A stretch of DNA of 64,000 nt from contig JAAEQR010000003.1 in NCBI GenBank assembly GCA_024231215.1, positions 22,660-86,659 of the forward strand, in the 5' to 3' direction. Positions 866 to 63,900 of this stretch are shown here, in pieces. The stretch is from PVC group bacterium. GTDB taxonomy: Bacteria; Omnitrophota; Gorgyraeia; B26-G9. Every line of letters begins with the position of its first letter. Within the stretch, counting starts at the first letter, position 1. The notes below the pieces were generated by a model. The model worked only from the letters and a program-made list of their open reading frames with translations, had not been told where the DNA came from and did not search any database. The position numbers and the translations under genes are program-made.

Positions 866-878
866 TTGGTATGCAAAT

Positions 879-912
879 AAGGCCCGGCCAGAAATGTCCG
901 GGCCTTATTTAT
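879..912 (+). terminator. Intrinsic terminator after cspA
   Basis: GC stem ggcccgg / ccgggcc flanked by aa/tt, followed by a T-rich tract (ttattta). Confidence 0.7.
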
Positions 913-1082: not shown

Positions 1083-1087
1083 AAATT

Positions 1088-1126
1088 CCACAGAGGTTTA
1101 GAAGCATTTACCTTGTGGTTTTTTTT
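1088..1126 (+). terminator. Intrinsic terminator-like hairpin 30 nt upstream of the ABC-F start
   Basis: ccacagagg / ccttgtgg forms 8 bp with one bulge and a 14-nt loop, followed by T8 (1119-1126). Confidence 0.6.
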
Positions 1127-1156
1127 CGGTTTAATTGTAAGGATGGATAATAGGTT

Positions 1157-2773: not shown

Positions 2774-2799
2774 AAGAGCTGTAAATCTCATGATTTTAA

Positions 2800-2834
2800 C
2801 CCCTTGTAATGATATGTTTTGCAGGGGGTTTTTA
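2800..2834 (+). terminator. Intrinsic terminator after the ABC-F gene
   Basis: Stem cccctt(g) / (c)agggg with a 13-nt loop, followed by ttttt. Confidence 0.7.
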
Positions 2835-2940
2835 TTTGCTTGATATAAGATAAAAAAATGTTGTATGATTGGGGGTTTTGAAGGATAATAACGTGGTTAT
2901 TAAAAATAGGGGATTTGATTCATTGAATAGGAATAAAGCC

Positions 2941-3612: not shown

Positions 3613-3614
3613 TC

Positions 3615-29568: not shown

Positions 29569-29892
29569 TTCATGTATCGCATTTTTTCTGGAAAGTTTTT
29601 AGCCAATTCAATGCTTCTTCTTCTGCAGTAAACATTAAATCAGACCAATATATCAAGATGTAACTTAGTATATACTGATGATTGTATCATAAGATATAAT
29701 TGGGTGCAATATTATTTCATATAGAGTTAAATATTAATATAATCTTAAAAAATCTTATAAACTTAGTAAAATTGAATTGGGCGTTACGATCAACAAAAGA
29801 AAGGTTGAAAGTTTTCAGTAAATGAAGTAACATATAAAAATAACTCTTATTTGTTCTTAGTTGCCGGGAAAAAAGGAAAATCTGACGATATA

Positions 29893-34457: not shown

Positions 34458-37400
34458 ATGATTTCAGTATTAAGTCGTAATTTTTTCTTTAGAACAACCG
34501 CAATTATTTTAATTCAAGCATTTTTATTAATAGACATATCGTGGGCCTGTGGTGGGAGGCTTAATGATATTGATGACAGTAAGGTTTTTGAAGATAACTA
34601 CCTTGCTCCTTCCTTAATTATTAATCACTCTGACTTTTCAAGTTATTTTTCTAGTCCAGAAGATATTACTGCGAATCAATTCAGTAGTTTAAGTTCTGCA
34701 GAAATCGAAACCTTAACATATAAACTTGGCCTAACTCTTACCAATGAAAAGCAAGCAGCAAGAGAGATTGAAGAGATTAAGAAAGAACAATTTAAAATAA
34801 TGGATCAGTTTAGTGAAGGGTTAGAGAACAAGGAGCAACGTGAAAAAGCTTTGAATCAGGTAGTAAGAGATACCAATAAAGCGATTGATACTTTAAGGGC
34901 TGATTTTGTTGTGCAGGAGAGGGCAAAAGCTGAGTTAAAAATTAAAGCAGAAGAGTTGAAAATAGAAGCAGAAATTGCAAAGCTAAAATTAGGCAAAGAG
35001 AGAAGAGAAAACTTTGCGAAAGAAGCTCAGCAGGCATATGATCAGGAAATCGCCAAGCTTATTAAAGAAATCAAAGATGCCGCGAAATCAAAAAAAAGAA
35101 AGGCAGAGGAAGAGTATAAGGAACGTGTTAGCAAAATTGAGGAATGTGTTAGCAAAATTAAGGAGGGACTGCTTGAAGGAATATACATATCTGATTCGCT
35201 GGCTCAGGATATTGAAAAAATCAAGCAGGATACAAATGCCAGGATCCAAAAGATAGCTGCGGATATGCGTACTGAGAAGGGCTTTTTAAGCGATACAGTC
35301 AGGGGTATTATTATTGGCGTGTTTAAAATCGCCTGGTATTGGCCAAAAGGTAAGATAGCTGTTTTAAAGATTGAATTGAGCACTCATGAAGGTTATGATC
35401 TTAGCAAGTCTCGTAGTAGATTTAAGGCAGAAGTTAAGGAAATTAATAAATCTGCCAAGGCAGAGATAGAAGCGGTTAGGGACGGAAAAGATAAAAGGAC
35501 ACATAAACTTAAAGAAGAGCTTGATCAGGCTGGTTTAAATATTGAAAAAGATAAAACGAGGCTGGAACAGCTGGAATCAGATAAGAAAAAACAGCCGGAA
35601 ACAATTAGACAAGAAGTAGAAAACGCAATAAAAGAAGCTCAGAAAGATGCAGCTTTAAAAATCCTTAGCGGTCTTCAAGGTGATGAATATGTAGAACTCA
35701 GGCTGAAGGCTTTAGAAACTGTTTTGCCGCTGGTTAAATTATACGAAGACCGCCAGTCAGAAGGCCAGATGGACATGAGAATTGAAAGTAGGGAGGAGTC
35801 CATTGCCGCTTTATTTTTACGCGCGTATCGGGAAGGGCTTAGCGCTATTTCGATTACCGATGCTAAGCAATTACCTTCTCCTGAGGCGGCTAAGGCACAG
35901 CAGATTGTGAACAGACATATCAAGCGTTCTCGAAAGAAAAATGAAGATAAAAGAAAACCGCTGAAATATATTCCGGGAATCGAATTAGTCGTGTCTCTGG
36001 ACGGAGAGAAAGTTCCGGTAATTATCTATCTGCCGGAAAATTCACGTAACTTGGCGAACGATAAGACTGTTCAGGATTTGCTGGCGCGTAGAAGACCGTT
36101 TATGTTACAGGAACTCGCCCATATTTTATACGTATATAACGGAAAGATTGCTTTAGCCGATGCTCATAAATCTCTAAAAGCAGCGCAGATATTTTTTGAA
36201 CGCATGGCGGAATTTGTAATTAAAGGCAGGATCCCGTTGCGGTCCGTATTAGGGGTCGTATATTATGAAGGAACAAAGCAAAAATCTGATGAGCCGGACA
36301 GTCCGGAGAAACAGAAGCTGATGGAGTATATCGCCCGGCTTTGCGTACACCATCCGGTTTATAAACAGAGTGAGCTTTTCTTTCTGCCGGGAACTAATTT
36401 CAGCGGTAGTGTAGATCTGGAAAAGGAAAATATGCTCGGCAGCGGAGCGGATCGTCATCCGCATGAAACGAGTTATCGAGATAGGATTTTAAAGGCAGTA
36501 AATTATAAATCGGGATTATGGGAGAAGATTGTTTATGAATATGAGGGGTTTTTAAAAAACGTTTATATTTGGGGTTTAATGATTACGGCAGGTGTAACGA
36601 TTGTTGGGACACATTCACTTATTTTGGCCGGACTTTTTGCGGTGATGTTCTATTATTTGATTGCGACATATCCTGGATCTAAAAAAAGTGCATTAAAACA
36701 ACAGGTGCAAGTAATTCCCCAGGCAGATATTGCGTCAGAGGAAATGATGAAATACAAAGATTGGAAATTTGATCCGGCTAAAATTCCTCAACCCAAACCA
36801 GAAAGCGAAAAGAGTGCTTCTAAATGGGGAAAAGTGATGGAAACCGCAGGAAATATTTTTGATAAACTGGATATATTAGAAAATCTTTTTTATAGAGCGA
36901 CAGCCGGGACTAAGTATTTTGCCGGCAGTTTGAGAGAGCATTTAAATAAAAATAAGATCACAAATAACTTTTTCAGAAACGATTTGAAGCCCTGGCAAAA
37001 ATGGACTTTCTTTATTTCCAGTTTGACAATAAGCGGAGTATTGGCCGGTTGGTTGGCCGGCAGTGCATGGCTCGGAATTAAAATAGGGGCATTAGTCTGG
37101 GGTATTGCAATAGCGTTAAAGATTTTTGTGTACATAACCGATTGGGATATGGTGCTTTTACTTTTTGGATTTGCTGGTAGTGGGATAGCCGGATGGTTCT
37201 TGGGAAAAGACTACCCGTGGCAAGGAGCTTTTATTGGTCTTACCGGGTGGACGGGTTTTTTAAATAGGAAAGGAATAATATCCTTTTTTAGAGACAGAAT
37301 AAGAAAAGAGATTGATTTTTATAAACGTTTTAGGATGCTTGGGCCCAAGGCTGTTTTTATCCGAAAGACTCTGAAATTACAGCAGGATATGGCTAAGGGA

Positions 37401-38723
37401 ATTGTATATGTGAATATGGTGGGAAAATCGTTTGGCCTGAGAAAAATAGAGGTTGTGAATGTTTTGGCTAAACATGGTTTTGAATATGTAAAGATACAAG
37501 ATGCCAGCACATTGGTATTTGCCAAAAAGGACGTGATGAGAAGGATCGGAGCGGAATTTTTGAAAACAGCTTTAGAAAAATCCGGCACTTCCTGGGAGAA
37601 GATGACCGAGACTTTAAATAAGATCACAGAACATTTTGAAAAAATGCTGGTCGAGGTAACGCTGAGCACAGGGAACGGCAGGACACGTAAAATGTTTATC
37701 CCGGATCCGAGAGAAATTGCCGATGATCAGGTTATGTATAAGCTTTACCGGATTATCGCCATGTACAAGGCACAGGGATTAGTTTTGGAAAATCCCCAAA
37801 CCCGTCTGGTGGTTGATGTAAAAGGAGCGGACGGACAAGTCAGACCAGTTACAGCAAACGAATTGGCCTTAGTTATGAATAAATATTTTGACATTGTAGT
37901 ACCCATGCCGGAGGAGGGAAGTACGCCGGTGAAATCCAGGATTAGTCAGGGGGAGGTAAGGATACTGGAAGCTACCGGACAGCTTAATGAACTTTGGGAA
38001 CAAGGGGTTAAATCTTTAGTTTCGATCAACCTTGGTTCGCAGATCAGAGTGATTGTTGCGGAATTGCTCAAAGATGAAAAAATCGGAACAATTCGGGTAA
38101 CCTCTTATCCGACAGAATTAGGGCGTGACCTGATTGATTTTAGCTCCGAGGCCGGGAAATCGGTAGAAAGTTTGATCAGTGATCAGGCAATATTGGAGGC
38201 GGCGGAAGAGATGGGCTTACTGGAAACGATTGCGCGAGAGTTTAATATGGATAAGGAGAGCGTAACCCCTGAGCATATCGGACTGATCGCTGCCGGGCGA
38301 AATCCTTTTAATCAGGAGCAAGAGTTATACCAGCCTGTAGAGGTTAAAAAGTCGACGATGCATATGGGCAGTAAATATTTTGGCGGAGACACCGGGTCTA
38401 AGCTTGAGCGATTAGAGGCTGTGGCCCAGGAGTTATGGAAAAAGATAGATCGCAAAATAGCGGATTTTATCATCAAGCTGGATGCGGATAGAGCTGCGGA
38501 ACCGGGAAAGACCTCTTATCATCTTAGCGGAGAAACAATGACTTTGGATATCGCTAAGTTAAGAACGGAAAATTTGCGCCGGTTTCTTGAAGAGAAAAAG
38601 GCTGAGCATATCGAATTTTCCTGCGGGGAAGACCCCCTATCGGGAAACGCAATAATCGACCATGATTTAGAGCGGTCTTCTGAGATTACCGAACCTGCTT
38701 TGTTGGTTGAAATGGCGATTTAG
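34458..38723 (+). CDS. Tagged-family member 2: 1421-aa protein with a K/E-rich coiled-coil region and an internal multi-TM block
   Basis: Leader IILIQAFLLIDISWA, YLAPSLIIN box, Lys/Glu-rich heptad-like sequence at about nt 34720-35700, 6-7 hydrophobic helices at about nt 36560-37265, and C-terminus LLVEMAI. Confidence 0.85.
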   Translation: MISVLSRNFFFRTTAIILIQAFLLIDISWACGGRLNDIDDSKVFEDNYLAPSLIINHSDFSSYFSSPEDITANQFSSLSSAEIETLTYKLGLTLTNEKQAAREIEEIKKEQFKIMDQFSEGLENKEQREKALNQVVRDTNKAIDTLRADFVVQERAKAELKIKAEELKIEAEIAKLKLGKERRENFAKEAQQAYDQEIAKLIKEIKDAAKSKKRKAEEEYKERVSKIEECVSKIKEGLLEGIYISDSLAQDIEKIKQDTNARIQKIAADMRTEKGFLSDTVRGIIIGVFKIAWYWPKGKIAVLKIELSTHEGYDLSKSRSRFKAEVKEINKSAKAEIEAVRDGKDKRTHKLKEELDQAGLNIEKDKTRLEQLESDKKKQPETIRQEVENAIKEAQKDAALKILSGLQGDEYVELRLKALETVLPLVKLYEDRQSEGQMDMRIESREESIAALFLRAYREGLSAISITDAKQLPSPEAAKAQQIVNRHIKRSRKKNEDKRKPLKYIPGIELVVSLDGEKVPVIIYLPENSRNLANDKTVQDLLARRRPFMLQELAHILYVYNGKIALADAHKSLKAAQIFFERMAEFVIKGRIPLRSVLGVVYYEGTKQKSDEPDSPEKQKLMEYIARLCVHHPVYKQSELFFLPGTNFSGSVDLEKENMLGSGADRHPHETSYRDRILKAVNYKSGLWEKIVYEYEGFLKNVYIWGLMITAGVTIVGTHSLILAGLFAVMFYYLIATYPGSKKSALKQQVQVIPQADIASEEMMKYKDWKFDPAKIPQPKPESEKSASKWGKVMETAGNIFDKLDILENLFYRATAGTKYFAGSLREHLNKNKITNNFFRNDLKPWQKWTFFISSLTISGVLAGWLAGSAWLGIKIGALVWGIAIALKIFVYITDWDMVLLLFGFAGSGIAGWFLGKDYPWQGAFIGLTGWTGFLNRKGIISFFRDRIRKEIDFYKRFRMLGPKAVFIRKTLKLQQDMAKGIVYVNMVGKSFGLRKIEVVNVLAKHGFEYVKIQDASTLVFAKKDVMRRIGAEFLKTALEKSGTSWEKMTETLNKITEHFEKMLVEVTLSTGNGRTRKMFIPDPREIADDQVMYKLYRIIAMYKAQGLVLENPQTRLVVDVKGADGQVRPVTANELALVMNKYFDIVVPMPEEGSTPVKSRISQGEVRILEATGQLNELWEQGVKSLVSINLGSQIRVIVAELLKDEKIGTIRVTSYPTELGRDLIDFSSEAGKSVESLISDQAILEAAEEMGLLETIAREFNMDKESVTPEHIGLIAAGRNPFNQEQELYQPVEVKKSTMHMGSKYFGGDTGSKLERLEAVAQELWKKIDRKIADFIIKLDADRAAEPGKTSYHLSGETMTLDIAKLRTENLRRFLEEKKAEHIEFSCGEDPLSGNAIIDHDLERSSEITEPALLVEMAI

Positions 38724-38861: not shown

Positions 38862-41800
38862 ATGGGTATCAATAAGAAATACCTATATCTAAGAATTATT
38901 GCATGTATTCTAATACAGGCGGTTTTGTTTGGTAACAGCGGCTTGATCGGAGTAGTGCGCGCAGAAAACTTCCTGTCGCCGGTTTTAGAAATAAATAATA
39001 AGCTGGTTAAGACTTCGTTTGAAACTCCTCAGGTAAAAAGTCGTCGTTTTGTTCATAATCTGGATGATTTATCAAAACTTTCCCGCCGCAAAAGAGATGA
39101 TCTCGAAATAAATGTTCTTAAAAGAATTAGAAATATTAATCTCAAAGGTTTTAATTTTTTATCAAGGGAGGAGCAGGAGAATTTCATTTTTGTTGATTTG
39201 GACTTTGCGGAGTATGTGTTAAAGACTATCTTTACCGATAAGATTAAAGAGGACATGTCTCAGAAGAACGTATCTTATGAAATCATAACAAGGATTATAG
39301 TAGACATGTTTATTCTTTTAAACAAGGTGTTAGAACAACAAGAAGGACAGGATAATACCTATATCGCATGCACTAATTATACTTTTTCTAAAGATAGAAA
39401 AGGACAGACATATGTACTCACGGTTAATTTTGAGAAAAAAGGAGTGGAAGCTAAAATATCAAAATTTATAGCCGAAGAAATTGATGCAGAAATGCCGAAT
39501 ATTGTCTCAGTGTCCGGGCCGATAGAAAAAATCACTGGAAATAAAAGTATAGATGTTAGTTTTTACGGGGTTTCAAAAAATAACAAAGTGCTTACCCCAT
39601 CGGAAATAACCCGAGCAGTGAAGAAGCTGCCGCCGAACGCAGAGAATATAGATATTTCGGAATTAAGAATTGCGCATAAAAGATTACTTAATTTGGCCAG
39701 AGATCGTTACGAAAAACAGGATATTTTAAAAGAAATAACCCCAGCCATAGAGAGGAAAATAAAAACAGGTATTGTTGCGGAAGGGACATCTTCTTTTACC
39801 CCGATTACTGAGAAGGCTTTTGTGGGAAAGATTATTTGCGCGGAAGTGGTAGAAAAAGAGAAAAAGCCGACATATCCTTTAGTTTCATATTATTCGGAAA
39901 CATTGAGGAAAGATCTGAGATTATTAGATAATGCTATAAATACGGCTATGTATAAGTATGAAGGTATAGATATTAATACGGTTCATCATTTTTTGCAGGA
40001 TGCCTTTGCGTTTGCAAGACATGATTCTCGGGAAACACGCAAGGCTCCGACAGCTCAATTTTTATCGCATCTTATGGATGAGCGGAAGGCAGTGCGGGTT
40101 AGAATTCGAAAGGAATTATTGGAGATTATTACATATACGCCGATGTTAAATAAAGACAATGAGCCAAGAGAGATTTCGGAAATCATGGAGGAAGAGCTAG
40201 CTGAGTTAGCGGAACTGCAAGATTACGAAGACAATATGTATATCTGGGGAGAACTGAACAGGCTTAATCAAGAGGATTTGCTATGGGATAACATCATGTC
40301 TCAAGCAAATGAAATTGTGGGTAATATATATCAATATATAGAAGGAGTGGACCCTGAACCTAAAAATGAAAAAGAGCAGATGGCTTTAGATGCGATTGAA
40401 AATGCGAGGAAGGCAGTCCCAACAGATACTCAAATTGGGTCTATGGTCGATACTGTATTACAAGATCTGCCGCGGCAGTTATTTGCCTGGTTAAGAAAAT
40501 ATGATTGTTCTTTACATGAGGCGTTTTTTCGGTCTATGCAACCTATTGTAGACCAGTTAGTTCAAGCTCAAGAACATACGTCGCAAATGAAAGGAGGGCT
40601 TTCTTTAAATCTCCATACCGAACTTTGTACTTTTGTGGATACTGTATTGTTGGAACTGGGAGAGTATGAATCGCGGCATGTAGTGGTACATAATGACTCG
40701 GAGAAGGAGCCATTTATATTATATGTGCCGGGAGACCTAGGAGGGCCGGAGGAATATTTGCGTTTTCGGCGTCTTTATCCGAATATGGTAGGGATTGTAG
40801 TTAAAGAAGGAGCTAAACATTATGCGGTAATGGCCGGAGATCACGGATTCCCGGTGATTAATAAAATTGATTTAATTGAAATGAGCGAAGGAAAATTGCC
40901 GTTAGAGCTGGTGTTAAAAAAGAAAACTAATGGAATTATGCGTATTAGCAGGGGAGGGAAAGCGTTTTTATATATAAACCCTTCATTGAGGGATACCCTT
41001 GAGGCGGAAACTATTATAAAAACAGCGCAGGCAATTAAAATATTGTGTGAAGCTAATATAGATTTAGAAGGAGAAGATGGGAAATTAAAGACGTATGATG
41101 GAGTAGAAGCGCCTGAGATAATGATGAATTTGGATATTGCCGAAGATGCGGAAGACTTGCCGAGCCGGGTAATACGGAAAATAGGTCTTTATCGTACAGA
41201 ATATGAGTATGAACGTCATGGAGAGTTAACAGAAGAAGCATGGTATAAAATTTTTAAGAAAATTGTTAAAGATTCAGAGGGCGATTTTATCGCTGTACGT
41301 TTACCGGATAGAAAAGTATCCGGAGAAGGTGGGGATATAAAAAATCCTAAAGCTTTTGGAAAAAGTAATCTTGAAGGACTTGATTTTTTGCTTGATGAAA
41401 GAGCTAAGGGCAGGCGAATCTCAACGATAATATTAAGGGCCCTTATGAGAGTATATGCAGAAGACGGAGTCGTAGGTGCTCTTTTTCCCATGGTTTCGCA
41501 AGAAAGAGCCGAAGGAATAATCGACTTTGTCGAAGAAATAAAAGAGAATTTAATCTTTGAACAAAAAAATAAAAATAAGCGGGAAGCTTTGGAAGAGGCG
41601 TTAGACAGCTTTTCCGTGGGAGCGATGTTTGAAACTCCTCAGGCTTTTGAATTTAAAAAAGAGCTTATGGAGATTTTTGATTTTGTAAGTTGGGGGAGTA
41701 ATGACTGGAAGATGGCTTCTTCCGGGAAGTCAAGAGGTGCTCAGGGAACGACCAAAGAATTGATTTCATTTACGCCTGAGGTTGTAAAAACCGCATTAGC

Positions 41801-42191
41801 GGCAGGTAAGATGAGCAGGAAGAAGGAAGTACCTTTTTCTATCTGTGGTAAGCTTGCGTCTACCCCTGAATTCATTCTATTTTCACTATATGCAAAGTCG
41901 TTGTCGCTTTTTGATATCCGACTAAGCGTTGGTAAAGATTCTATAGCGTACGTCAAAGAATTTATTCGCCATGTCGATACTAGACGCATTAAAGATATCT
42001 TTAATGATTATCGAAAAGGTTATGATCAGAATAAATTTGATGAGAAAATAGCAGATGAAATAGAAAACATAGTGCTTTCTATGGGAGAATTAGCCAAGCC
42101 TTTTCTACAGGGACAAGTTAAGATGTCGTTACAGAAGAAAAGGGGGCAGGCATCGAAGGCTCCTGTGTTAGTGCATGAGTATGCAATATAA
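38862..42191 (+). CDS. Tagged-family member 3: 1109-aa protein whose C-terminal half resembles PEP-utilising enzymes (swivel His-domain plus TIM barrel, PtsI/PPDK-like)
   Basis: GAKHYAVMAGDHGFPVI (compare GGxTSHAAIxARxxGIPAV), GLYRTEYEY (compare GLFRTEFL), LFPMVS, VGAMFETPQAF, FVSWGSNDW (compare SIGTNDL) and FSICGKLAS (compare CGEMAG). Leader ILIQAVLF, FLSPVLEIN box, C-terminus LVHEYAI. Confidence 0.8.
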   Translation: MGINKKYLYLRIIACILIQAVLFGNSGLIGVVRAENFLSPVLEINNKLVKTSFETPQVKSRRFVHNLDDLSKLSRRKRDDLEINVLKRIRNINLKGFNFLSREEQENFIFVDLDFAEYVLKTIFTDKIKEDMSQKNVSYEIITRIIVDMFILLNKVLEQQEGQDNTYIACTNYTFSKDRKGQTYVLTVNFEKKGVEAKISKFIAEEIDAEMPNIVSVSGPIEKITGNKSIDVSFYGVSKNNKVLTPSEITRAVKKLPPNAENIDISELRIAHKRLLNLARDRYEKQDILKEITPAIERKIKTGIVAEGTSSFTPITEKAFVGKIICAEVVEKEKKPTYPLVSYYSETLRKDLRLLDNAINTAMYKYEGIDINTVHHFLQDAFAFARHDSRETRKAPTAQFLSHLMDERKAVRVRIRKELLEIITYTPMLNKDNEPREISEIMEEELAELAELQDYEDNMYIWGELNRLNQEDLLWDNIMSQANEIVGNIYQYIEGVDPEPKNEKEQMALDAIENARKAVPTDTQIGSMVDTVLQDLPRQLFAWLRKYDCSLHEAFFRSMQPIVDQLVQAQEHTSQMKGGLSLNLHTELCTFVDTVLLELGEYESRHVVVHNDSEKEPFILYVPGDLGGPEEYLRFRRLYPNMVGIVVKEGAKHYAVMAGDHGFPVINKIDLIEMSEGKLPLELVLKKKTNGIMRISRGGKAFLYINPSLRDTLEAETIIKTAQAIKILCEANIDLEGEDGKLKTYDGVEAPEIMMNLDIAEDAEDLPSRVIRKIGLYRTEYEYERHGELTEEAWYKIFKKIVKDSEGDFIAVRLPDRKVSGEGGDIKNPKAFGKSNLEGLDFLLDERAKGRRISTIILRALMRVYAEDGVVGALFPMVSQERAEGIIDFVEEIKENLIFEQKNKNKREALEEALDSFSVGAMFETPQAFEFKKELMEIFDFVSWGSNDWKMASSGKSRGAQGTTKELISFTPEVVKTALAAGKMSRKKEVPFSICGKLASTPEFILFSLYAKSLSLFDIRLSVGKDSIAYVKEFIRHVDTRRIKDIFNDYRKGYDQNKFDEKIADEIENIVLSMGELAKPFLQGQVKMSLQKKRGQASKAPVLVHEYAI

Positions 42192-42202
42192 AAGAGGATA
42201 TT

Positions 42203-44296
42203 ATGGGATTTTCTGGTAAAAAAAGATCGGGCAAATCAATATCTTCACGAATTATCACCCTGATAATTCTACAGATCTTTTTTGTCTCAGGATTGTTGTC
42301 CCTAGGCAATAGCTTTGCTGCGGATACTCACCAAACCTGCCTTTCTCCCCGTGTAAATATATCTAATGCGCTAGTCAAAAATTCTTTTAGTACCTTTAAA
42401 AAGCTTAATTTAAATGATTTGTTTGAAGGATTTGCAGAGGGTATTCTAGACATCGATAAGGTAGATCACTGGTTAGTTGGTCGCAATGAATCTATCGCTT
42501 ATGAGTTTAAAACAGATTTAGTTCCTAAAATTGTACAACAACCCAATGCAAAATGGTTTTTAGAACAAATACTTGCAGAAGATAAACTTAAGCCATTACA
42601 TTTTGAAGCCCAAGCTGTTCTTTTGCAGATACGTTTTAAAGAGCTTGGATATCCTAACCATAACCCAGCCTGGAGACATTTTATATCTTCGATGAAAGAA
42701 GGGCTTCAATTCCTGGAAAACCCTGAAAACTTAGAGAATAAGGATGTAGTTATCGGCACTTGTCATGTGGCTGCGGATTCGGATTCTGTGGCTGCGGCAA
42801 TTACGTGGTATGAACGGGAAAGAATGTTAGCAGAGAATCGAGGAAAGGTTTTTATTCCTTTGATCTCTAATGAGGACAGGGATATAAATCTTGAAACAGA
42901 GAGACAATTGCATATTTGTGGGATAATAGCAGAGGATCTGATATACGCTTTTCCTAGTAAAGAGATGGAGAAAAGAGGCGAGGTTAAAAGCCTGATACAG
43001 CAGAAACTTGAGGCTATTGCTAAAACAAAATATAAGAGTAGAATAAAAATTGATTTGCTCGATCATAATGCGGTACAGGTTGACTGGTTAAAACCTTTTA
43101 AAGTACGTAAGATATATGATCATCATAACCCGGAAGTGGATATGCCGGAATTGGCCCCGGGAAATGATTATGTCCGCATTGAAGCCTCCACGACAACCAT
43201 AATTGCTCAGGAAAACATGAAAGATCGTATTTTCCATAGATCATTTCCACAGATAAAGTTTTTGACTATGGCTACCTTGCTTTCAGATACAGACTGTTTA
43301 AATTCAGATATTACACAGCAAGAAACTCTCGGGATTTTATCTCGGATGGCAAAGGATATGGGTTTTTTAAAAAAAGTGCAGTTAAATGGCGGCATAGGCT
43401 CTAGTGGTAAGATTGATTTTGAAAAAATGGAACGCTATTTTGAAATCATAGTTGATAGGGTTTATCTGAACCGGCATTCTTATGTAGAGGAATGGCTGAG
43501 GGATTGTAAGACATATAATGGGTTTGAATTCGGCCAGTCAAAAGTTATATCTTGGGAAGAGTTGTCTGAGAAAAAAGAAATGGAATTAATCGAAGGCATG
43601 AGAAATAAACTTAATGAAAACGATGACAATGAAGCTATTGTTTGGATGGTATCTTCAATGAATCCGTCTGAGTATGGCAGTAAATTTTATGCAATATGTA
43701 AAGATGACCCAGATGGGGCTAAGGCAGAACAGATTATTAGCCAGGTGATGTATCAAAGTCCGGTAAGGATCGGGCTGGTGCGGTCGATATATGTGAATCC
43801 GGCAATACATGCGTACCAGAAAGACTCTCCGGTGAATCCAGTGAGAGTTTTGAATAGAGCTTATAGACAATTTGATCTTAATCTGGATAGATCAACCAAG
43901 AAACAGATGATGGAAAAGATAAGCAATTTGATACAAGATTATGGAAGTAGATTGAAAAGGGATTTGGTTTATAGATATTATTCGTATGAAATAACCAGTG
44001 ATATAATTGAATTTCTGGAGTCAAAAGGCATATCCTGGATACATGCGGAAGTAATGAAGCCGGAAAAAATATATATCGAGGAAATAGGATTAAAAAACGA
44101 AAGAACGCGCAGGGTTCAAATGCCTGGATTTGCTTCCCGGAAGAATATAAAAAATGAGGTTGAAGGCGCAGTCGCGGAAATCATCAGAATAAATAAAGCT
44201 GAGAGGACATTGCGTTTGAACCTCCGCAATGAAATTATGGGCGCTGATGCTGCTTTTGGAATTCAAGCAAAAGAGTTAGTCTTACAGGCTATTTGA
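42203..44296 (+). CDS. Tagged-family member 4: DHH-family phosphoesterase-like protein (family II pyrophosphatase / nanoRNase-type motifs)
   Basis: CHVAADSDSVAAA (DxD), LLDHNAV, IYDHHNP (DHH) and TLLSDTDCL motifs. Leader IILQIFFV, CLSPRVNIS box, C-terminus ELVLQAI. The start is 11 nt after the previous stop. Confidence 0.8.
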   Translation: MGFSGKKRSGKSISSRIITLIILQIFFVSGLLSLGNSFAADTHQTCLSPRVNISNALVKNSFSTFKKLNLNDLFEGFAEGILDIDKVDHWLVGRNESIAYEFKTDLVPKIVQQPNAKWFLEQILAEDKLKPLHFEAQAVLLQIRFKELGYPNHNPAWRHFISSMKEGLQFLENPENLENKDVVIGTCHVAADSDSVAAAITWYERERMLAENRGKVFIPLISNEDRDINLETERQLHICGIIAEDLIYAFPSKEMEKRGEVKSLIQQKLEAIAKTKYKSRIKIDLLDHNAVQVDWLKPFKVRKIYDHHNPEVDMPELAPGNDYVRIEASTTTIIAQENMKDRIFHRSFPQIKFLTMATLLSDTDCLNSDITQQETLGILSRMAKDMGFLKKVQLNGGIGSSGKIDFEKMERYFEIIVDRVYLNRHSYVEEWLRDCKTYNGFEFGQSKVISWEELSEKKEMELIEGMRNKLNENDDNEAIVWMVSSMNPSEYGSKFYAICKDDPDGAKAEQIISQVMYQSPVRIGLVRSIYVNPAIHAYQKDSPVNPVRVLNRAYRQFDLNLDRSTKKQMMEKISNLIQDYGSRLKRDLVYRYYSYEITSDIIEFLESKGISWIHAEVMKPEKIYIEEIGLKNERTRRVQMPGFASRKNIKNEVEGAVAEIIRINKAERTLRLNLRNEIMGADAAFGIQAKELVLQAI

Positions 44297-44379
44297 TCAA
44301 TTTGTACCCAGTCGTAAACCCGCCGCAAAATTTATTTCTAACCATCTGAAAATAAAAGACTTAAAAATCTCGCCAGACC

Positions 44380-44408
44380 TTGACAGGTTGTATTTCATAT
44401 GGTATACT
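44380..44408 (+). promoter_or_regulatory. Cluster promoter P4 (CCTTGACA-17 nt-TATACT)
   Basis: TTGACA at 44380-44385 and ATATGGTATACTTTACC, with the hexamer at 44403-44408. A GC hairpin gggccg/cggccc (44436-44456) lies in the leader. Confidence 0.7.
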
Positions 44409-44480
44409 TTACCGCTTTTATAATAATTAATGTAGGGGCCGCGCTCGGCTCGGCCCGAATAGTCTATAGAAGAGGTAAAT

Positions 44481-46349
44481 ATGCTATCCAAACGAATAAT
44501 AAAAGTTGTTGCAGTTGTTATTATCCAGATGTTTTTATTTATGGATTTTGCCTGGGCAGCGGATTGTCTAAGTCCTTCTTTGAATTTTAGCGGAACTCAA
44601 TTTTCCTCTCATTACAATATTATTTCTGAGGCAATTAAGATTTTTGAAGAATTAGAAGGAGCTCAGGAACAATTTGTTATCAAATCAGGTGATAATTATT
44701 TTTACGTTTATAATCCTAATAATGCTTCAAAAACATTATTAACAAATGCAGAAGTTATTATTAATAATGAAGACGTAGCAGTTGCTTTATTGGGTGATTT
44801 TAAATACCAGAAGACAGAAAAGAAGCTAGTAGAGCCGGTGAAAAATGTAAATATTATTACGGATTTATATTCAGTTCAGCAATGGCGTTCAATATTTGAA
44901 ATGATTATTCACGGGGTTGGTCCGAATAAACCAGGATATTCTCGGGACTATATCCCGCATGTCAAACGATGGTTTAGGCTTCTTTTTAAACAGATAACTG
45001 GGGTAGAGCCTCCAGCTGAAGCTGTTTATTTTTTCGAGGCAGTATATGCGGATGTTGTTACTAGCCGGGTTAATCCTATGGTAAAAAAATACAATAAAGA
45101 AGAAGAGCGTTATGGGGTGCGTGAAATAGAATTAACTCAAAAGGCGATAGGTAATTTTGCGGCAACGCCCTACGCATACATGGATGCAGGTGTTAGAGAA
45201 GAGATGTATAAAAAATTAGATGCGGTTTTAGCAGAGATAGTAGAGATAGCTCTAGCTCAAGGAGCGACTGGCGATTGGCCGACAGCATTAAATGCAATAA
45301 TGCACAGCCAGGGAACGGTCACCGGAACTGAATGGATCCAGGACCGATTAGAAAAAGGAATGTGGCCGGATGTATTGCAGACAGATAAAATAATATTAAT
45401 TGGTGGGGTGTTATGGCTCAAATCAATTCTTAGAAGCAGACCTTTAAGTGATCCTTTAAGAGTTCAAAAATTTGGAGGAATGATTGTAAATATTAAAGAC
45501 CCGCAAGATGCAATTGGAAGATTTTTAAGGCTATTGAGCCCTGAATTTGCGGATGCGATATTTGCTGATGGGTATCTTAATGTGGGAAGTTTTTTAAACC
45601 CATTATCACATACAATTGCTTCTCATACTAAGTATTGGAATAGTCGTAGAATCGCTAAAATCAAGGCAATGATGCTTGTATTTAGCGCATTAAGGCAGAA
45701 TCCCGCGTGGTTAACCAAATACGGACGCAAGTCTTTAGATATTAATGCAGCAGAAACTGAATTCAGAAGAGATCTTCTAAAATTACTTAGAAGTGACTTA
45801 TCCTCCTTGCCCCAGCATGATCCGGAACTTATTGGGCCGGGGTATAAATTTGTGTCTAATGATGAGAATGAGGCTACGGGAGGTATCTTTGTTTTAAATG
45901 AAGCGGCTGAAAAAATTGGATTTTATGCGGACAATAAAACAGTTGCTGCAAATAATGATATCATTGAGCCGATCAAAGCAAAAGTTAAATTTACAAAAAA
46001 TCTTACAGCTAAAGTAGAAGAGTTAAATAAAATCACTCCGGATAGAGCAAATAACCAGGGGTATATGATGATTAATTCTTTGAATCAGGAAGCGGCGAAT
46101 CAAATTAGAGACAAAATTAAAGAAATCAGTTTATTTGTAGAACAGTTTCAGGGTGCAGATACACGGGAGCTTGCTGTACGGATTAAGGAAGTGCAGGATT
46201 TAGCTAGACAGAATATGGACATTTCTAAATTAGATGAAATTAAAGTAAAAATGCAGAATTTGCTTAGTACTACTATAAAGTCAATTGAAGTTTGTAAGCC
46301 TGCTTCAGGGCAGAGTTCAATTATTGCTGCAATCAGTATATCAATATAA
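44481..46349 (+). CDS. Tagged-family member 5: 622-aa protein of unknown function
   Basis: Leader VVIIQMFLFMDFAWA, CLSPSLNFS box, C-terminus IAAISISI. I recognised no catalytic motif. Confidence 0.8.
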   Translation: MLSKRIIKVVAVVIIQMFLFMDFAWAADCLSPSLNFSGTQFSSHYNIISEAIKIFEELEGAQEQFVIKSGDNYFYVYNPNNASKTLLTNAEVIINNEDVAVALLGDFKYQKTEKKLVEPVKNVNIITDLYSVQQWRSIFEMIIHGVGPNKPGYSRDYIPHVKRWFRLLFKQITGVEPPAEAVYFFEAVYADVVTSRVNPMVKKYNKEEERYGVREIELTQKAIGNFAATPYAYMDAGVREEMYKKLDAVLAEIVEIALAQGATGDWPTALNAIMHSQGTVTGTEWIQDRLEKGMWPDVLQTDKIILIGGVLWLKSILRSRPLSDPLRVQKFGGMIVNIKDPQDAIGRFLRLLSPEFADAIFADGYLNVGSFLNPLSHTIASHTKYWNSRRIAKIKAMMLVFSALRQNPAWLTKYGRKSLDINAAETEFRRDLLKLLRSDLSSLPQHDPELIGPGYKFVSNDENEATGGIFVLNEAAEKIGFYADNKTVAANNDIIEPIKAKVKFTKNLTAKVEELNKITPDRANNQGYMMINSLNQEAANQIRDKIKEISLFVEQFQGADTRELAVRIKEVQDLARQNMDISKLDEIKVKMQNLLSTTIKSIEVCKPASGQSSIIAAISISI

Positions 46350-46363
46350 AGGAAGGTAAAAAT

Positions 46364-49183
46364 ATGTTATCTAAGAGATTCGTAAAAATTATTTCAATTG
46401 TAATCATTCAGGCATTTTTGGTTTTGGACTTTGCCTGGGCCATGGGGCCTGATGCCAGATTTTTTGATGCCGGAGCACAGGAATATCTTGCTCCGACATT
46501 AACTATTAACAGCGCGCCGATTCAGGCAACTTTGCAAAATATGATGGCGCGTGAGAAATCACTTCAGGATGTTATTGATTTTGGCAAAGAAGAAAAAACA
46601 GAATTCTTTGCCGGGTTATCTAAAGAAGAAAAAATAAAACAGCTTGAACAATGGATGGCTGCGTCTTTTGAAGGCGGCGGACCCAAAGGCGCTTATGAAG
46701 CAGGGATTGGACAACTGTTTATGGAGTCATGGATGCATTTGAAAAACCAGGGCAAGGAAGATGTTACCGGGTTTGATGTTATCGGGGGTAACTCCGCAGG
46801 TGCAATTAATGCTTTGTTTTTTAGTTTAGCAATAATGTATGATCCGACTTTTGTTAAATATAATGAAATTACCTGGGTAAAACATTTAAATTTAAAGAAT
46901 TTATTAGAACCGGGCCAAAATTATAATCCTAAGAACGCAGTTTTTTCCAGCCAAATAATAGATCGCGCAATAAAAGCCATAGAGCAAAAGTTGGAAGAGT
47001 GTAAGAATAACGACAAGACTCTTTCTTATGCTCCGGAAGAGATAAGAGTTGTTTTTTCAGTAACCAATCTTAGTGGAACTCCTTATTGGGATGAAGTGAA
47101 GAATCTTCTGGATGGTAAAAAAGGTATTAGATATGACCACCAGGGGAAAATCCATTTTACAATTAAAAAGAAAGACCGCTACAGTCCTGAGACTATGGAA
47201 ATGCTTACATTGATGATGAAAGTTGCGGTAGCTTCAGCATCAATTCCAATTGTTTTTGAAGCGCGAAAAATAGCTCAGTCAGTTAGAGCTTATCCTGGCA
47301 GCATTTTGGCAAACATGGCTGTGAAAGCCGGGAAATGGCTTACCGAAAAAATCACATCAATTTTTGTCGATGGAATGCTTGTAGACAACAAGGCGATAAA
47401 AACAGTAGCAAAGCTAGCTAGGAAGAAGGATATTGAAGAGGGAATGCTGAACAGCAATTTGCGCAATAGATTGCAAGTGGCTATTTCACCGAATGTAATA
47501 GATGATACCGAAGGAGAAAGATTTGATAAACAGGATATCCCTTCTGTTGCTATGAAGAGCCTTAGTGCGGTTATGGCGCAAGTTCTTTATCAGAATGAAA
47601 AGATTGATGAGATAAATAAGAAAAACACGCTGATTACGCATTTCATACAGGATATACAGAAACAGGCTGAAAAAGTAAAGCGTTATAAATGGAGTAAGAA
47701 GCGACTAAAGCAGGAGATTGATGAGTTATTATTCGGATCAAGTTACAGTCTTATTAAACGCAAAAGTGAAAATAGAGCCAAAAGACACATTCTAAAGGAA
47801 ACAGGAAAAGAAGTGGAATATGAAGCGACCAAGGATGAAGTAGCCTGGTATATAAAAAGAAATAAAGAACGTGTAATCAGGCAGCGTTTGCTGGCCAACG
47901 GAATTATTACCGAAGCACAGCTTAACAGTCAGGATGAACGGGATAAATTGTTTATTGATTACTTGGCACTTTTTACGTTTGTCGAGGAATGCGGTCGTGA
48001 TTTAAGAGGCAGGGAAGAAGTATACGTACATCAGATTGCGCCAACTAAGCATCCTTTGGCATCTGATCTCTTGCTCGGGTTTTTGAGTGAGGATGTCAGG
48101 CAGGCTGATTTTAATCAGGGATATGAAGATGCACGATTGGCATTGGAGGCGCTTTTAGGTGTGGATCTTTCTGGTTTGCGCCGGCAGGAATCGGTTCAGC
48201 AGACGGAAGGTTATCAGTTTGCTTATAGCAATGTTTCTTTGACAGAAAGAAAAGAAATAGTAAATATGCTTATTGCCAGAGCAAAACTTATTGTTAAAAC
48301 TATCTTAAGCAAAAAACATTCGTCCTTGGTGGGTAAAATATTCGCTCAGCCGGGGATTGTGGGAAGAAATATTCTGCTTAGTGGTGCTTTAATATTTGTT
48401 AAAAAAATGCTGGCAAAACAATTTCATATTCCTCAGGATGAAAAAAATGCTAAAGCAAGAAGAGTCGAGTCTTTAAAGCTAAATATGCGTAATAATATTT
48501 TATATAAAGAGAATGAACTTTATAATTTAAAGGAAACAAAAGCAAGGCTGGAGCAAATAGCTAATTCTAAGAAGCCGGTTGCAGTTATTGTAGGTAGTGA
48601 TTTAGAAACTTCATTTGAGGCAATGTCTGTGATTAGTAGGTATAGAAAAGATATTACTATTCTTAAAGCACCACATGGAGAGACCCCTGGACAAGCTTTG
48701 CGAACAAGTTATACAAAAGGAAAAGAGACTATTGATTTACATAAATCTACCCAATATAACAGAGATGTTATTTTAAAAACTTTTATTTTAAATTCAGGAA
48801 TTTTAATTAGTACTAAAAAGATGCTGGATAAATATTCTCGAATTGGAGGTAATTACAAAATTACAGAATTGGGGGAAAAAGCAGAAGCCGAGTGGGCAAC
48901 AATTATTAATAATAAAGAACATATAATTATATTGGGAGAGACCCCGGAACAATTAAAACCGATATTAAAGGATAAGGATGTATTAGAAATAGAGACAGCA
49001 AAGCATAGGAAGGCTTTGAATAGAAAAATCCCCTTTGTCGGCAGGAATGTTTGGGAGAAATATTTTGGCAAAGATAAGCAAGCTAAAACACGTAATTTAC
49101 TGGACCTTCGTTATGTACCTAGTTTTGGTGGATATAAACAACCATTGATGATGCATAATAATCTGGTGAATATAGCAATTTAA
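46364..49183 (+). CDS. Tagged-family member 6: 939-aa patatin-like phospholipase with a long C-terminal extension
   Basis: FEGGGPKGAYEAG (oxyanion GGGxxG), GGNSAGA (GxSxG) and VDGMLVDN (catalytic Asp region). Leader VIIQAFLVLDFAWA, YLAPTLTIN box, C-terminus NLVNIAI. Confidence 0.85.
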   Translation: MLSKRFVKIISIVIIQAFLVLDFAWAMGPDARFFDAGAQEYLAPTLTINSAPIQATLQNMMAREKSLQDVIDFGKEEKTEFFAGLSKEEKIKQLEQWMAASFEGGGPKGAYEAGIGQLFMESWMHLKNQGKEDVTGFDVIGGNSAGAINALFFSLAIMYDPTFVKYNEITWVKHLNLKNLLEPGQNYNPKNAVFSSQIIDRAIKAIEQKLEECKNNDKTLSYAPEEIRVVFSVTNLSGTPYWDEVKNLLDGKKGIRYDHQGKIHFTIKKKDRYSPETMEMLTLMMKVAVASASIPIVFEARKIAQSVRAYPGSILANMAVKAGKWLTEKITSIFVDGMLVDNKAIKTVAKLARKKDIEEGMLNSNLRNRLQVAISPNVIDDTEGERFDKQDIPSVAMKSLSAVMAQVLYQNEKIDEINKKNTLITHFIQDIQKQAEKVKRYKWSKKRLKQEIDELLFGSSYSLIKRKSENRAKRHILKETGKEVEYEATKDEVAWYIKRNKERVIRQRLLANGIITEAQLNSQDERDKLFIDYLALFTFVEECGRDLRGREEVYVHQIAPTKHPLASDLLLGFLSEDVRQADFNQGYEDARLALEALLGVDLSGLRRQESVQQTEGYQFAYSNVSLTERKEIVNMLIARAKLIVKTILSKKHSSLVGKIFAQPGIVGRNILLSGALIFVKKMLAKQFHIPQDEKNAKARRVESLKLNMRNNILYKENELYNLKETKARLEQIANSKKPVAVIVGSDLETSFEAMSVISRYRKDITILKAPHGETPGQALRTSYTKGKETIDLHKSTQYNRDVILKTFILNSGILISTKKMLDKYSRIGGNYKITELGEKAEAEWATIINNKEHIIILGETPEQLKPILKDKDVLEIETAKHRKALNRKIPFVGRNVWEKYFGKDKQAKTRNLLDLRYVPSFGGYKQPLMMHNNLVNIAI

Positions 49184-49217: not shown

Positions 49218-49255
49218 GCCCCCCTTCCGGGAATATCCGGGAGGGGGTTTTTGTT
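49218..49255 (+). terminator. Strong intrinsic terminator
   Basis: GC-rich stem ccccccttccgg / ccgggaggggg (about 11 bp) followed by tttttgtttt. Confidence 0.9.
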
Positions 49256-49380
49256 TTGTACTCGTATAGTTTGGCAATCATCCATCGCTATGTGGCGCTT
49301 AAGCCGCAGCGCATCTTTAACTCTCTGCGAATAAAACACTTAAATCTTCCATTTTTTTATAATAAAATCCCTTCTAGCTA

Positions 49381-60979: not shown

Positions 60980-63900
60980 ATGGCACGAAGAAAAATTGCA
61001 ATGGATGGAAATACCGCGGCGGCATATGTCGGCCACGCGACTAATGAGGTAATTGCTATTTACCCAATTACTCCTTCTTCTGGTATTGGTGAAATGGCTG
61101 ATGCTAAATCAGCTAAAGGTGAAAAGAATATATGGGGACAAATTCCGGTTGTATCCGAATTACAGTCCGAAGGCGGGGCTTCTGGAGCAGTGCACGGGGC
61201 TTTAAGTGCGGGTAGTTTGACGACTACATTTACTGCGTCTCAGGGGCTTTTACTTATGCTTCCGAATATGTTTAAGATTTCCGGAGAGCTTACTCCGGCA
61301 GTGTTTTATGTTACCGCACGTACAGTAGCATCGCATGCGTTATCTATTTTTTGTGATCATTCGGATATTATGGCTGCACGTTCTACGGGGTTTGGTGTTT
61401 TGTTTGGAGGTAGTGTGCAGGAAGTCATGGATATGGGTTTGATTGCTCAAGCGGCAACCTTAGAAGCTCGCGTTCCTTTACTTATGTCTTTTGACGGGTT
61501 CCGGACTTCGCATGAAATTCAGAAAATTGAAGAGCTTACATTTGATGATATGCGTCAGGTGATAAAAGATGAGTATGTGCAGGCACATCGCAGCCGTGCG
61601 CTTAATCCTGATTGTCCGACGATAAAAGGAACTTCTCAGAACCCGGATGTATTTTTTCAGGAAAGAGAGACGGTTAATCCGTATTATGATAAAGCAGCTT
61701 CTGTTATTCAGGGCGTAATGGATCGTTTTGCTAAAGTTGTTGGTCGTCAATATAAGTTATTTGATTATTTCGGAGCGCCGGATGCAGAGCGTGTGATTGT
61801 AATTATGGGATCCGGAAGCGGTGCAGTGCTTGAGACAGTAGAAGAGATGAATAAAAACGGAGAGAAGGTCGGGATGGTTAAAGTTAATGTATATCGTCCT
61901 TTTTGCGTAGAAAGCTTTGCCAAAGCATTACCGGAAAGTGTAAAAAAGATTTCTGTATTAGATAGAACTAAAGAACCGGGTGCAATAGGAGAGCCTTTAT
62001 ATATTGATGTTCGTTCTGCAATTGGAGAGGCTTTAGAAATTGGTATTGCTACATTTAAAGAATGGCCGGTGATTGTCGGAGGTAGATACGGTTTAGGTTC
62101 TAAGGAATTCAATCCTTGTATGGCAAAAGCAGTGTTTGACAGTCTAAAAGGTGAAAAGGCTAAAAATCATTTTACTGTTGGGATTAATGATGATGTGACT
62201 AAAACAAGTATTGAATTTGATACTTGTTTTTCAGCTGAAGATGTAGATACGTTCCGCGGGGTGTTTTACGGGTTAGGGTCTGATGGTACTGTTGGTGCAA
62301 ACAAAAATTCGATAAAAATAATCGGTGAGTTGACTGATAATTACGTGCAGGGATTTTTTGTCTATGATTCTAAAAAAGCTGGTTCACGAACGGTATCCCA
62401 TCTGAGATTTGGCAAGAAACCAATCAACAGTACTTATTTGATTCAGCAGGCTAATTTCGTTGCTTGTCATAACTTTAGCTTTTTGGAAAAGTACGATATG
62501 CTTTCCGGGGCTGATGAAGGAGCTACTTTCTTGCTGGCAAGCCCGTATGGCAAAGATGAAGTTTGGGATAAGATGCCAAAAGAAGTGCAAAAACAGATCA
62601 TTGATAAAAAGATAAAATTTTATGTTATTGCGGCATATGACCTGGCGAAAAAGATAGGGTTAGGGGCTAGAATAAATGTGATAATGCAGACTGCGTTTTT
62701 TAAGATTAGTAATATTATTCCGACAGATGACGCAGTAAAGGCGATCAAAGATGCGATTAAGAAAACCTATGGGAAAAAAGGTGATAAGATTGTAGAGATG
62801 AATAATAAGGCGGTTGATGTGGGCTTAAACGCGATGGAAGAGGTGAAAGTTCCGGCAGAGGCTACCAGTAAGATAACTATTCCAGATATAGTTCCGAATG
62901 ATGCGCCTGAATTTGTGAAGAATGTAACTTCTCAGATCATCTCTTGTCGTGGAGATGATTTGCCGGTATCCGCGTTTCCAGTAGACGGAACTTGGCCGAC
63001 TGCTACTTCTAAGTTTGAAAAGCGTAATATTGCGGTGCAAATACCGGAGTGGATCCCGGATTTGTGTATTCAGTGTGGACAATGCAGTTTTGTGTGTCCA
63101 CATGGTGTTATCCGAATGAAAATATATGATTCAGATCTGGTCAAAAGTGCTCCGGAAAAATTCAAGAGTTCTAAAGCTACAGGAAAAGGATTGGATAATA
63201 AATCGTTTACTTTACAGGTGGCCCCGGAAGATTGTACGGGTTGCGGAGTTTGTGTGAATAAATGTCCGGCTTTGGAAAAAGATGCAGATAAACAACCTAC
63301 CGGGAAAAAGGCGATCAATATGGTCTCTCAGGTTGAATTGAGAGATCAGGAAAAGAAGAATTTTGAATTTTTCTTGTCTATCCCGGATATGAAGGTAAAA
63401 GATTTACCGATTGGTATTGATACAGTAAAAGGGGCACAGCTTATGCGTCCTTTGTTTGAGTTCTCCGGTGCTTGTGCAGGTTGCGGAGAGACTCCTTATG
63501 TTAAGCTGATGACCCAATTGTTTGGAGACCGGGCGATTATTGCTAATGCAACAGGATGCTCTTCTATTTATGGGGGAAATCTACCGACTACACCTTATTG
63601 TGTGACAGAAGATGGTAGAGGTCCTACCTGGTCAAATTCTTTATTTGAAGATAACGCTGAATTCGGGTTTGGTATGAAGCTGGCAGTTGAGCAGCTTACC
63701 GAACGCGCACGTGCACTGTTGAAGGAGGTGAATTCAGATAGTTTAACTGAGGATGTTCTATCAGCTGAGCAAAAAACTCATCAGCAGATAGAAGAACAGC
63801 GTGAACGCATTGCGAAGTTGAAAGAAATACTGGCTAAGAAGTCTAATGATCCTAAAGTAAAAGAATTACTTGGCATCATAGATTATTTAGCCCAAAAGAG

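Follow-up and report, generated by a model that had tools for sequence, protein, structure and literature searches.

The question raised by the locus described here is on which membrane, and on which side of the cell envelope, a bacterial patatin-type lipase acts when it carries a sorting signal at each of its ends. The Omnitrophota are part of the PVC group, and the gene concerned (46364–49183) lies in a stretch of 64,000 nucleotides (nt) from an Omnitrophota member of this group (GenBank assembly GCA_024231215.1, contig JAAEQR010000003.1, positions 22,660 to 86,659 of the forward strand), which is referred to below as the window and to which all coordinates refer. The product of the gene, hereafter the tagged patatin, may well be an exported patatin-fold lipid acyl hydrolase that is sorted together with other proteins bearing the same terminal signatures (the tags) and acts on a membrane outside the cytoplasm of its producer, a reading to which we assign a probability of about one half.

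The open reading frame (ORF) and the parts of its catalytic domain, with positions in amino acids (aa), are as follows.

46364–49183, + strand: ORF of the tagged patatin, 939 aa and a stop codon, with an ATG start
46350–46356, + strand: ribosome-binding site AGGAAGG, read from the sequence, 7 nt before the ATG
46649–47533, + strand: patatin catalytic domain (aa 96–390)
46673–46690, + strand: oxyanion-hole loop GGGPKG (aa 104–109)
46787–46801, + strand: nucleophile elbow GNSAG with Ser144 (aa 142–146)
47366–47389, + strand: VDGMLVDN with the catalytic Asp336 (aa 335–342)

A word-indexed search of 5.8 billion proteins matched the tagged patatin to itself alone, as the identical NCBI entry 'MAG: patatin-like phospholipase family protein [PVC group bacterium]', which derives from a contig of 103,999 bp. 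The Pfam Patatin model (PF01734) matches aa 101–343 with 58 bits against a cut-off of 27.7 (E 2e-15). This bears out the initial annotation of the locus, which had placed a Ser-Asp patatin domain in the first 400 aa or so; the three motifs lie where it had located them, and the catalytic domain ends near aa 390. In an alignment of the tagged patatin with its relatives (22 sequences), residues G104, G109, G114, G142, S144, A145, G146, G337, F573, R579, D582 and G586 are invariant and D336 is conserved in at least 90% of the sequences, while in a larger alignment of 65 sequences conservation is complete at G146 and 90% or more at S144, D336 and G337. The conservation of S144 and D336 across the relatives therefore indicates that the Ser/Asp dyad is intact. 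The oxyanion-hole loop has the canonical form GGGxKG, where the closest relatives have G(G/A)VSLG, the family residue S107 being replaced. A structure predicted with AlphaFold2 (AF2) from the 65-sequence alignment is confident over aa ~100–650, with predicted local distance difference test (pLDDT) values mostly between 85 and 97; prediction from the single sequence gave a pLDDT of 36. The hallmarks of a patatin, namely a sufficient Pfam score, the glycine-rich loop GGxR/K, the GxSxG elbow, the Asp-Gly pair and the alpha/beta fold, are all present, and the base composition is continuous around the gene, without a break. Judged by its fold and catalytic residues, the protein is a genuine member of the patatin-type lipases, as its existing annotation as a patatin also states.

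What sets this patatin apart is the presence of signatures at both termini, which comprise three elements.

46364–46441, + strand: first part of the N-terminal tag, the Sec-type signal peptide MLSKRFVKIISIVIIQAFLVLDFAWA (aa 1–26), with a positive n-region, a 13-aa hydrophobic core and A-W-A at −3 to −1
46487–46510, + strand: second part of the N-terminal tag, LAPTLTIN (aa 42–49), fitting the pattern L(S/A)PxFxF(N/S) in which F denotes a hydrophobic residue
49163–49180, + strand: C-terminal tag motif LVNIAI-COOH (aa 934–939)

The N-terminal tag occurs on nine consecutive genes, starting at 34458, 38862, 42203, 44481, 46364, 49449, 55089, 56668 and 58097, and in a weaker form on those starting at 15252 and 33021, so that the window encodes 11 tagged proteins in total. 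It comprises a basic start, a hydrophobic core (K/R)IIxxVIIQAFL and D/N-x-x-W-A, followed mostly 11–18 residues later by L(S/A)PxFxF(N/S); Pro44 is present in every tag of the window and Leu42 in at least 90% of them. A hidden Markov model (HMM) of the tag gives the patatin the top score among the window proteins (72.3 bits, E 8.7e-22), and the protein had rightly been described as tagged from the outset. All 11 tagged proteins also end in (L/I/F)(V/I/L)xx(A/S/G)(I/V)-COOH, nine of them strictly and two as near variants (LVEYAI, LIEMAI, LVEMAI, VHEYAI, LVLQAI, AISISI, LVNIAI in the patatin itself, LIGMAI, FVESAI, LLEQAV and LVEQGV), compared with 0 of the 22 untagged proteins of the window. 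The typical form is LVEQSI or LVEMAI, the third position often being E and the fourth Q, M, Y or S. The patatin is bracketed by both signals, which argues that the 939-aa ORF, including its orphan C-terminal region, is one intact product. The payloads enclosed between the tags are mutually unrelated, comprising patatin, PEP-utilising, DHH, PAD-like, TPR, GGDEF, HEAT, coiled-coil and multi-transmembrane (TM) regions, and most of them have no Pfam match.

The distribution of the tag was determined by scanning a degenerate DNA pattern for [IL][IV]QAFLxxDxxWA on one genome per species from 185,579 species. There were 28 matches, against a chance estimate of ~7 from the information content of the pattern. 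Twenty-one were true N-terminal tags, of which 19 belong to metagenome-assembled genomes (MAGs) of Candidatus Omnitrophota and two to MAGs labelled Planctomycetia; the remaining seven, close to the number expected by chance, are internal, lack the rest of the tag and come mostly from Actinobacteria and Proteobacteria. Metagenome contigs of the JGI yielded 22 further tagged ORFs with the same pattern. Overall, about 58 distinct tagged proteins are known, nearly all from Candidatus Omnitrophota, and the tagged genes are clustered in other genomes too. Across the Omnitrophota the tag has the fuller form (K/R)IIxxVLIQAFLxxD(I/F)(A/S)WA(G/A)G, then L(S/A)PxLxI(N/S). The C-terminal motif accompanies it: in the genome loci the strict motif is present in 21 of the 25 tagged ORFs with a complete 3' end, the misses being two near variants and two truncated ORFs, and in the metagenome set it is found in 13 of 13 such ORFs. 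Background matches to the motif in the genome loci are all on ORFs cut at the 5' end by the locus boundary or on ORFs with weak tags. A profile search with the tag found one 77-aa ENA fragment (P0070), which is an ortholog of the tag of the protein encoded at 34458–38723. The tag is not represented in NCBIfam, and a literature search found no paper on it; the Omnitrophota papers searched do not mention it, and Seymour et al. never mentions signal peptides.

Among the 58 distinct tags, 46 fit the strict core pattern, and in these the −3 residue is small in 46 of 46, the −1 residue is Ala in 42 and the n-region is positive in 45. This pattern of −3/−1 residues and charge is the signature of a Sec signal peptide cut by signal peptidase I, and in the tagged patatin cleavage probably occurs after A-W-A26.

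The relatives of the enzyme are untagged. When 1.84 billion cluster representatives were searched exhaustively with phmmer, only 68 proteins were returned at E <= 1e-3, the best of them being 30% identical over aa 102–655 (E 1.8e-31). The relatives are ~550–610 aa long and start directly with the opening strand of the patatin fold; those that score best are co-linear with aa ~100–650 of the tagged patatin, the alignments of P0002, P0006 and P0017 extending to aa 645–655. An N-terminal leader is present in 0 of the 21 closest untagged relatives, while C-terminal TM helices were found in P0004–P0007 and in the more distant P0031, P0037 and P0068. Since the closest relatives are leaderless and some carry C-terminal TM helices, the lipase module appears to have been re-targeted in this Omnitrophota lineage.

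Beyond the catalytic domain the protein continues with the following regions.

47534–48433, + strand: helical post-patatin domain (aa 391–690), shared with the family and ending in basic amphipathic helices
48056–48124, + strand: core motif of the DUF3376-like domain, LASDLLLGFLSEDVRQADFNQGY (aa 565–587)
48434–49162, + strand: orphan C-terminal region (aa 691–933, ~240 aa), a long helix followed by a predicted alpha/beta segment

In the comparison of profiles by hhalign, aa 391–700 matched the post-patatin regions of the 21 relatives with a probability of 98.2% (E 4.7e-14, 169 columns), and the AF2 pLDDT of this domain is about 78–95 up to aa 650. The family core motif LAGDxxxxFxGFFxxxWRxHDFxxGR is represented in the tagged patatin by LASDLLLGFLSEDVRQADFNQGY; one relative cluster (P0013) bears the name 'DUF3376 domain-containing protein', and the Pfam DUF3376 model matches P0013 at the corresponding position. 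In the tagged patatin itself PF11856 (DUF3376) has no match even at E up to 10. The NCBIfam model TIGR03607 scores 50.4 bits on it, under the cut-off of 262.45, and 90–105 bits on the closest relatives P0002, P0013 and P0017, also under the cut-off of 262. The relatives too fall below this value, and the whole group is therefore regarded as a sister clade and not as members of TIGR03607. A literature search on DUF3376, TIGR03607 and PF11856 found no relevant paper. By these alignments the protein belongs to a rare subfamily that joins a patatin catalytic domain to a helical post-patatin domain.

The region of aa 691–933 had no match among the 1.84 billion representatives, PDB, Pfam, NCBIfam, the proteins of the window or ~60 other tagged proteins, and hhalign gave it a probability of 0.2% against the family; its AF2 pLDDT is mostly below 60. 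The part of the protein after the catalytic domain had at first been described as a K/E-rich extension of some 540 aa devoid of recognisable motifs. The composition was well observed, since aa 400–939 contain 11.1% K and 8.3% E and are basic, with a net charge of +26; as to the motifs, about 300 aa of this extension form the conserved family domain.

Taken together, the data are consistent with the following mechanism. The tagged patatin would be an active acyl hydrolase with a patatin fold and a Ser144/Asp336 dyad, resembling a phospholipase A or a lysophospholipase in type, a normally leaderless module that has been set between lineage-specific sorting signals, namely a Sec-type leader, L(S/A)PxLxI near the mature N-terminus and the C-terminal LVxxAI-COOH, and that would also have acquired ~240 aa of orphan sequence at its C-terminal end. 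The protein would leave the cytoplasm and, by the route of the remaining tagged cargoes, reach the envelope, the cell surface or a site further out, at which the basic helical region may bind a membrane while the dyad hydrolyses its glycerolipids. Of this scheme, the data establish the fold, the catalytic residues, the ancestry of the domains, the tags with their distribution and the layout of operon and promoter, whereas cleavage, export, the substrate and the membrane attacked are inferred. The likely target would be a prey or host cell. The membrane of such a cell is the most attractive candidate because most Omnitrophota have been proposed to be predators or parasites (PMC10066038; bioRxiv 10.1101/2023.11.21.568195).

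A broader proposal would treat the patatin as one cargo of an undescribed Omnitrophota-wide sorting or export pathway. Such a pathway would recognise two-ended signals (IQAFLxxDxxWA and L(S/A)PxLxI at the N-terminus, LVEQ(A/S)I-COOH at the C-terminus), its cargoes would be encoded in islands on one promoter type, and it would bring a highly diversified range of enzymes, some of them normally cytoplasmic (lipase, PEP-utilising, DHH, GGDEF), to the surface or into prey or host cells, with the orphan domain serving as a target-recognition or activation module. We put this forward as a tentative scheme, possible rather than probable.

Several observations weigh against action outside the cytoplasm by an active, exported enzyme. 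The Asp motif deviates from that of the family, DGM being present where at least 90% of the 22 relatives have DGG, so that the third residue of the patatin DG(G/A) motif is Met, and the family sequence NNEP reads VDNKA (Pro344 replaced by Ala); these deviations, as read from the alignment, could alter the activity. No ortholog with both the tag and the patatin was found in any protein, genome or metagenome collection searched, and no relatives were obtained from genome contigs searched with the whole protein or from metagenome contigs searched with an alignment of its tag and that of P0003. Domains of a cytoplasmic type (PAD_porph-like, PEP-utilizers_C, DHH phosphoesterase and GGDEF) occur on tagged proteins, namely those encoded at 33021–34271, 38862–42191 and 42203–44296 of the window and at 789–3920 of locus L014, the last of which carries GGDEF. 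Domains with cytoplasmic substrates would not be expected on proteins of the periplasm or the surface, unless these proteins work within a second cell or their topology differs from that predicted by the signal-peptide rule. No secretion apparatus was identified, nor was a conserved secretion component found near the tags in other loci, where only the tags recur and no machinery gene does.

The closest competitor of an exported enzyme directed at other cells is a lipase directed at the membranes of its own producer, held there by an uncleaved signal-anchor or retained in the envelope, where it would remodel or recycle the phospholipids of the producer, as is presumed for the untagged relatives with C-terminal anchors; the tags would then mark residents of an envelope compartment instead of exported weapons. 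The C-terminal TM helices of P0004–P0007 and, more distantly, of P0031, P0037 and P0068 point in this direction, as they make membrane tethering a family trait. So do the invariant Gln and the conserved Asp/Asn in the core of the tag, which are unusual for a plain signal peptide, and the further internal TM helices of several tagged proteins. However, an anchor has no need of the strongly conserved A/S-W-A at −3 to −1 followed by G/A-G, and the anchors of the relatives, being located at the other terminus, imply an inverted topology. On balance, we consider a self-directed enzyme rather unlikely.

The tagged patatin could instead be catalytically impaired, a patatin-fold protein kept as a lipid-binding or structural module. 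The replacement of family DGG by DGM and of the family residues P344 and S107 agrees with this idea, and the protein stands alone, lacking an ortholog in which purifying selection on the dyad would be visible. Yet Ser144, Asp336 and all of the glycines of the oxyanion loop and of the elbow are intact and the loop has its canonical GGGxKG form, which makes the loss of catalysis quite improbable.

The initial annotation had favoured a layout like that of ExoU and VipD, from which it would follow that the C-terminal domains bind a host cofactor or membrane and activate the lipase once a dedicated system has injected it; this assignment has largely been overturned, and an injected effector is now very hard to credit, because matches to ExoU and VipD are limited to the catalytic core and rank under generic patatins (E 0.24 for the ExoU sequence), the helical domain is homologous instead to that of leaderless bacterial relatives, a Sec-type signal peptide is unfit for delivery by a type III secretion system (T3SS) or by Dot/Icm, and no T3SS, chaperone or similar system was found among the scanned proteins of the window. 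Equally slight are the prospects of a CapV/CapE-type defence or abortive-infection lipase that destroys the membrane of its own cell on a phage-triggered signal: although the top structural neighbours are phospholipases of the cyclic-oligonucleotide-based anti-phage signalling system (CBASS) and weak PADLOC matches to 'Effector phospholipase' (E 1.5e-5) cover the N-terminal 55 aa only, the neighbours include no cyclase, sensor or defence partner and are all tagged and of the same promoter class, the contigs of the relatives show no conserved defence context, and the signal peptide would carry the enzyme out of the cytoplasm and so out of reach of nucleotide second messengers.

The preferred reading, that of an exported lipase sorted with other tagged proteins, is accompanied by an ordered arrangement of the gene in the window, the elements of which are given below.

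44339–44356, + strand: upstream box TAACCATCTGAAAATAAA of the shared promoter module, aligned with the boxes at 34329, 38737, 49318 and 57973
44380–44409, + strand: promoter-like site with TTGACA, a spacer of 17 nt and the extended −10 element TATGGTATACT, matching 11 of 12 positions with the TG extension
44481–46349, + strand: first gene of the operon, a tagged 622-aa protein ending in ...AISISI, the first 26 aa of which are 65% identical to those of the tagged patatin
49220–49257, + strand: intrinsic terminator, a 12-bp stem with 9 GC pairs followed by the T run TTTTTGTTTT, the strongest terminator-like site in 42–61.5 kb

Only 14 nt separate the stop codon of the 622-aa gene from the ATG of the patatin gene, and the next promoter module after the terminator begins at 49318. 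From this layout the patatin is predicted to be co-transcribed with the tagged 622-aa protein in an operon covering 44481–49183. The partner has no match in Pfam, NCBIfam, PADLOC or PDB, and no homolog of it was found. The string 'MHSQG' in its sequence resembles the nucleophile elbow of a lipase; no alpha/beta-hydrolase family matched, and no claim is made.

The exact 12-mer TATGGTATACTT is present in six copies in the 64 kb, compared with 0.46 expected. The copies, all on the + strand at 32977, 34391, 38791, 44398, 49399 and 58032, are all located upstream of tagged units (33021, 34458, 38862, 44481, 49449 and 58097, respectively), and no exact copy exists elsewhere in the window. The promoter is accompanied by the upstream box TAACYATCTGNRAATAAA, with boxes at 34329, 38737, 44339, 49318 and 57973. 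In other Omnitrophota loci TG(G/A/T)TATA(C/A)T precedes about a dozen tagged genes, and TGGTATACT is likewise found ahead of tagged genes there. The six near-identical modules suggest either a co-regulated set or a dedicated promoter class.

The same module was found outside the window. Positions 161–983 of a 1130-bp contig from a related organism (L001, ENA ERZ23498480) contain the same promoter, with 79% nucleotide identity to 44334–44545 of the window, and a tag with linker that are 71% identical to those of the patatin (window 46361–46630), in a 224-aa ORF without a patatin and with no 622-aa gene between promoter and tag. As the same promoter and tag are joined here to a different body, the two behave as a movable 5' module; L001 represents either such a promoter-and-tag module shuffled onto another body or a decayed copy. 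P0003 was considered as an ortholog of the tagged patatin and rejected, since it shares the promoter, tag and linker only and ends before any patatin domain.

The window contains a further patatin, as had been noted previously. The ORF at 25925–28153 has the PlpD-like type Vd layout of Patatin, POTRA and Omp85 domains; its signal peptide is ordinary, its C-terminus is aromatic, and it carries no tag. It is distinct from the tagged patatin, so that within 20 kb this organism encodes two patatins with different routes. The island of tagged genes is immediately preceded by the genes of a sigma-54 activator (29851–30852) and of an outer-membrane beta-barrel protein (31353–32825; TraF_2, E 1.4e-31, with weak similarity to PorP/SprF). 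No homolog of the beta-barrel protein was found beside the tags in the other sampled loci, and a role in sorting is unsupported. Within the island, the tagged 1421-aa protein encoded at 34458–38723 has a weak PADLOC match to LeoBC (E 1.2e-6, aa 98–396) and internal TM helices. The downstream edge of the island is marked by an untagged ORF (60981–64000, + strand) of at least 1007 aa that runs past the end of the window, and whose start we take to be typical of pyruvate:ferredoxin oxidoreductase. With a single exception, the long ORFs that do not overlap lie on the + strand, and the GC skew is strongly positive throughout the window (+0.13 to +0.32 per 2 kb). Neither a tRNA nor an Rfam match was obtained in the 64 kb.

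The novelty of the locus lies in a patatin that combines sorting signals peculiar to its lineage, at either end, with the helical domain of its family and a C-terminal orphan domain, the tag system being a more novel element than the patatin itself. So far only giant proteins have been suggested, speculatively, as the molecules with which the uncultured and widespread Omnitrophota act on other cells, and the locus offers a concrete candidate, a putative membrane-lytic enzyme with a predicted export signal. By means of the two-ended signature and the shared promoter, the whole set of co-sorted proteins could be enumerated for any genome of the phylum. Should the signature represent a new sorting route, the exported proteins of the phylum and its mechanism of interaction become directly testable.

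Among known systems, ExoU, a phospholipase delivered by the T3SS of Pseudomonas aeruginosa, resembles the tagged patatin in the order of its parts, a patatin domain with a Ser-Asp dyad and then helical domains towards the C-terminus, and in the proposed role against foreign membranes; similarity to the ExoU family beyond the catalytic core, in the bridging domain or the C-terminal membrane-localisation bundle, was not found in the tagged patatin. VipD and VpdC, Dot/Icm effectors of Legionella, likewise have an N-terminal patatin and a C-terminal helical regulatory domain, and neither the Rab5/Rab22-binding helical domain of the VipD family nor Dot/Icm delivery was recognised for the tagged patatin. 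PlpD is exported via a fused POTRA-Omp85 barrel, which is absent from the tagged patatin and present in the ORF at 25925–28153. CapV and CapE of CBASS and plant patatin are cytosolic single-domain proteins of ~300–360 aa, whereas the tagged patatin has 939 aa, a signal peptide, two extra domains and no cyclase. The tagged genes as a set resemble polymorphic toxins and variable surface-protein families, in which a shared promoter and an N-terminal trafficking module are likewise combined with unrelated payloads in islands; unlike polymorphic toxins, they have no immunity genes or known secretion domains, and the tagged patatin bears tags at both ends, which were Omnitrophota-specific in our searches, so that the analogy is one of organisation only. 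The uncharacterised bacterial patatins related to DUF3376 and TIGR03607 have no N-terminal signal, no LVxxAI end and no equivalent of aa 691–933, unlike the tagged patatin, with which they share a patatin core with family-specific insertions and a helical post-patatin domain.

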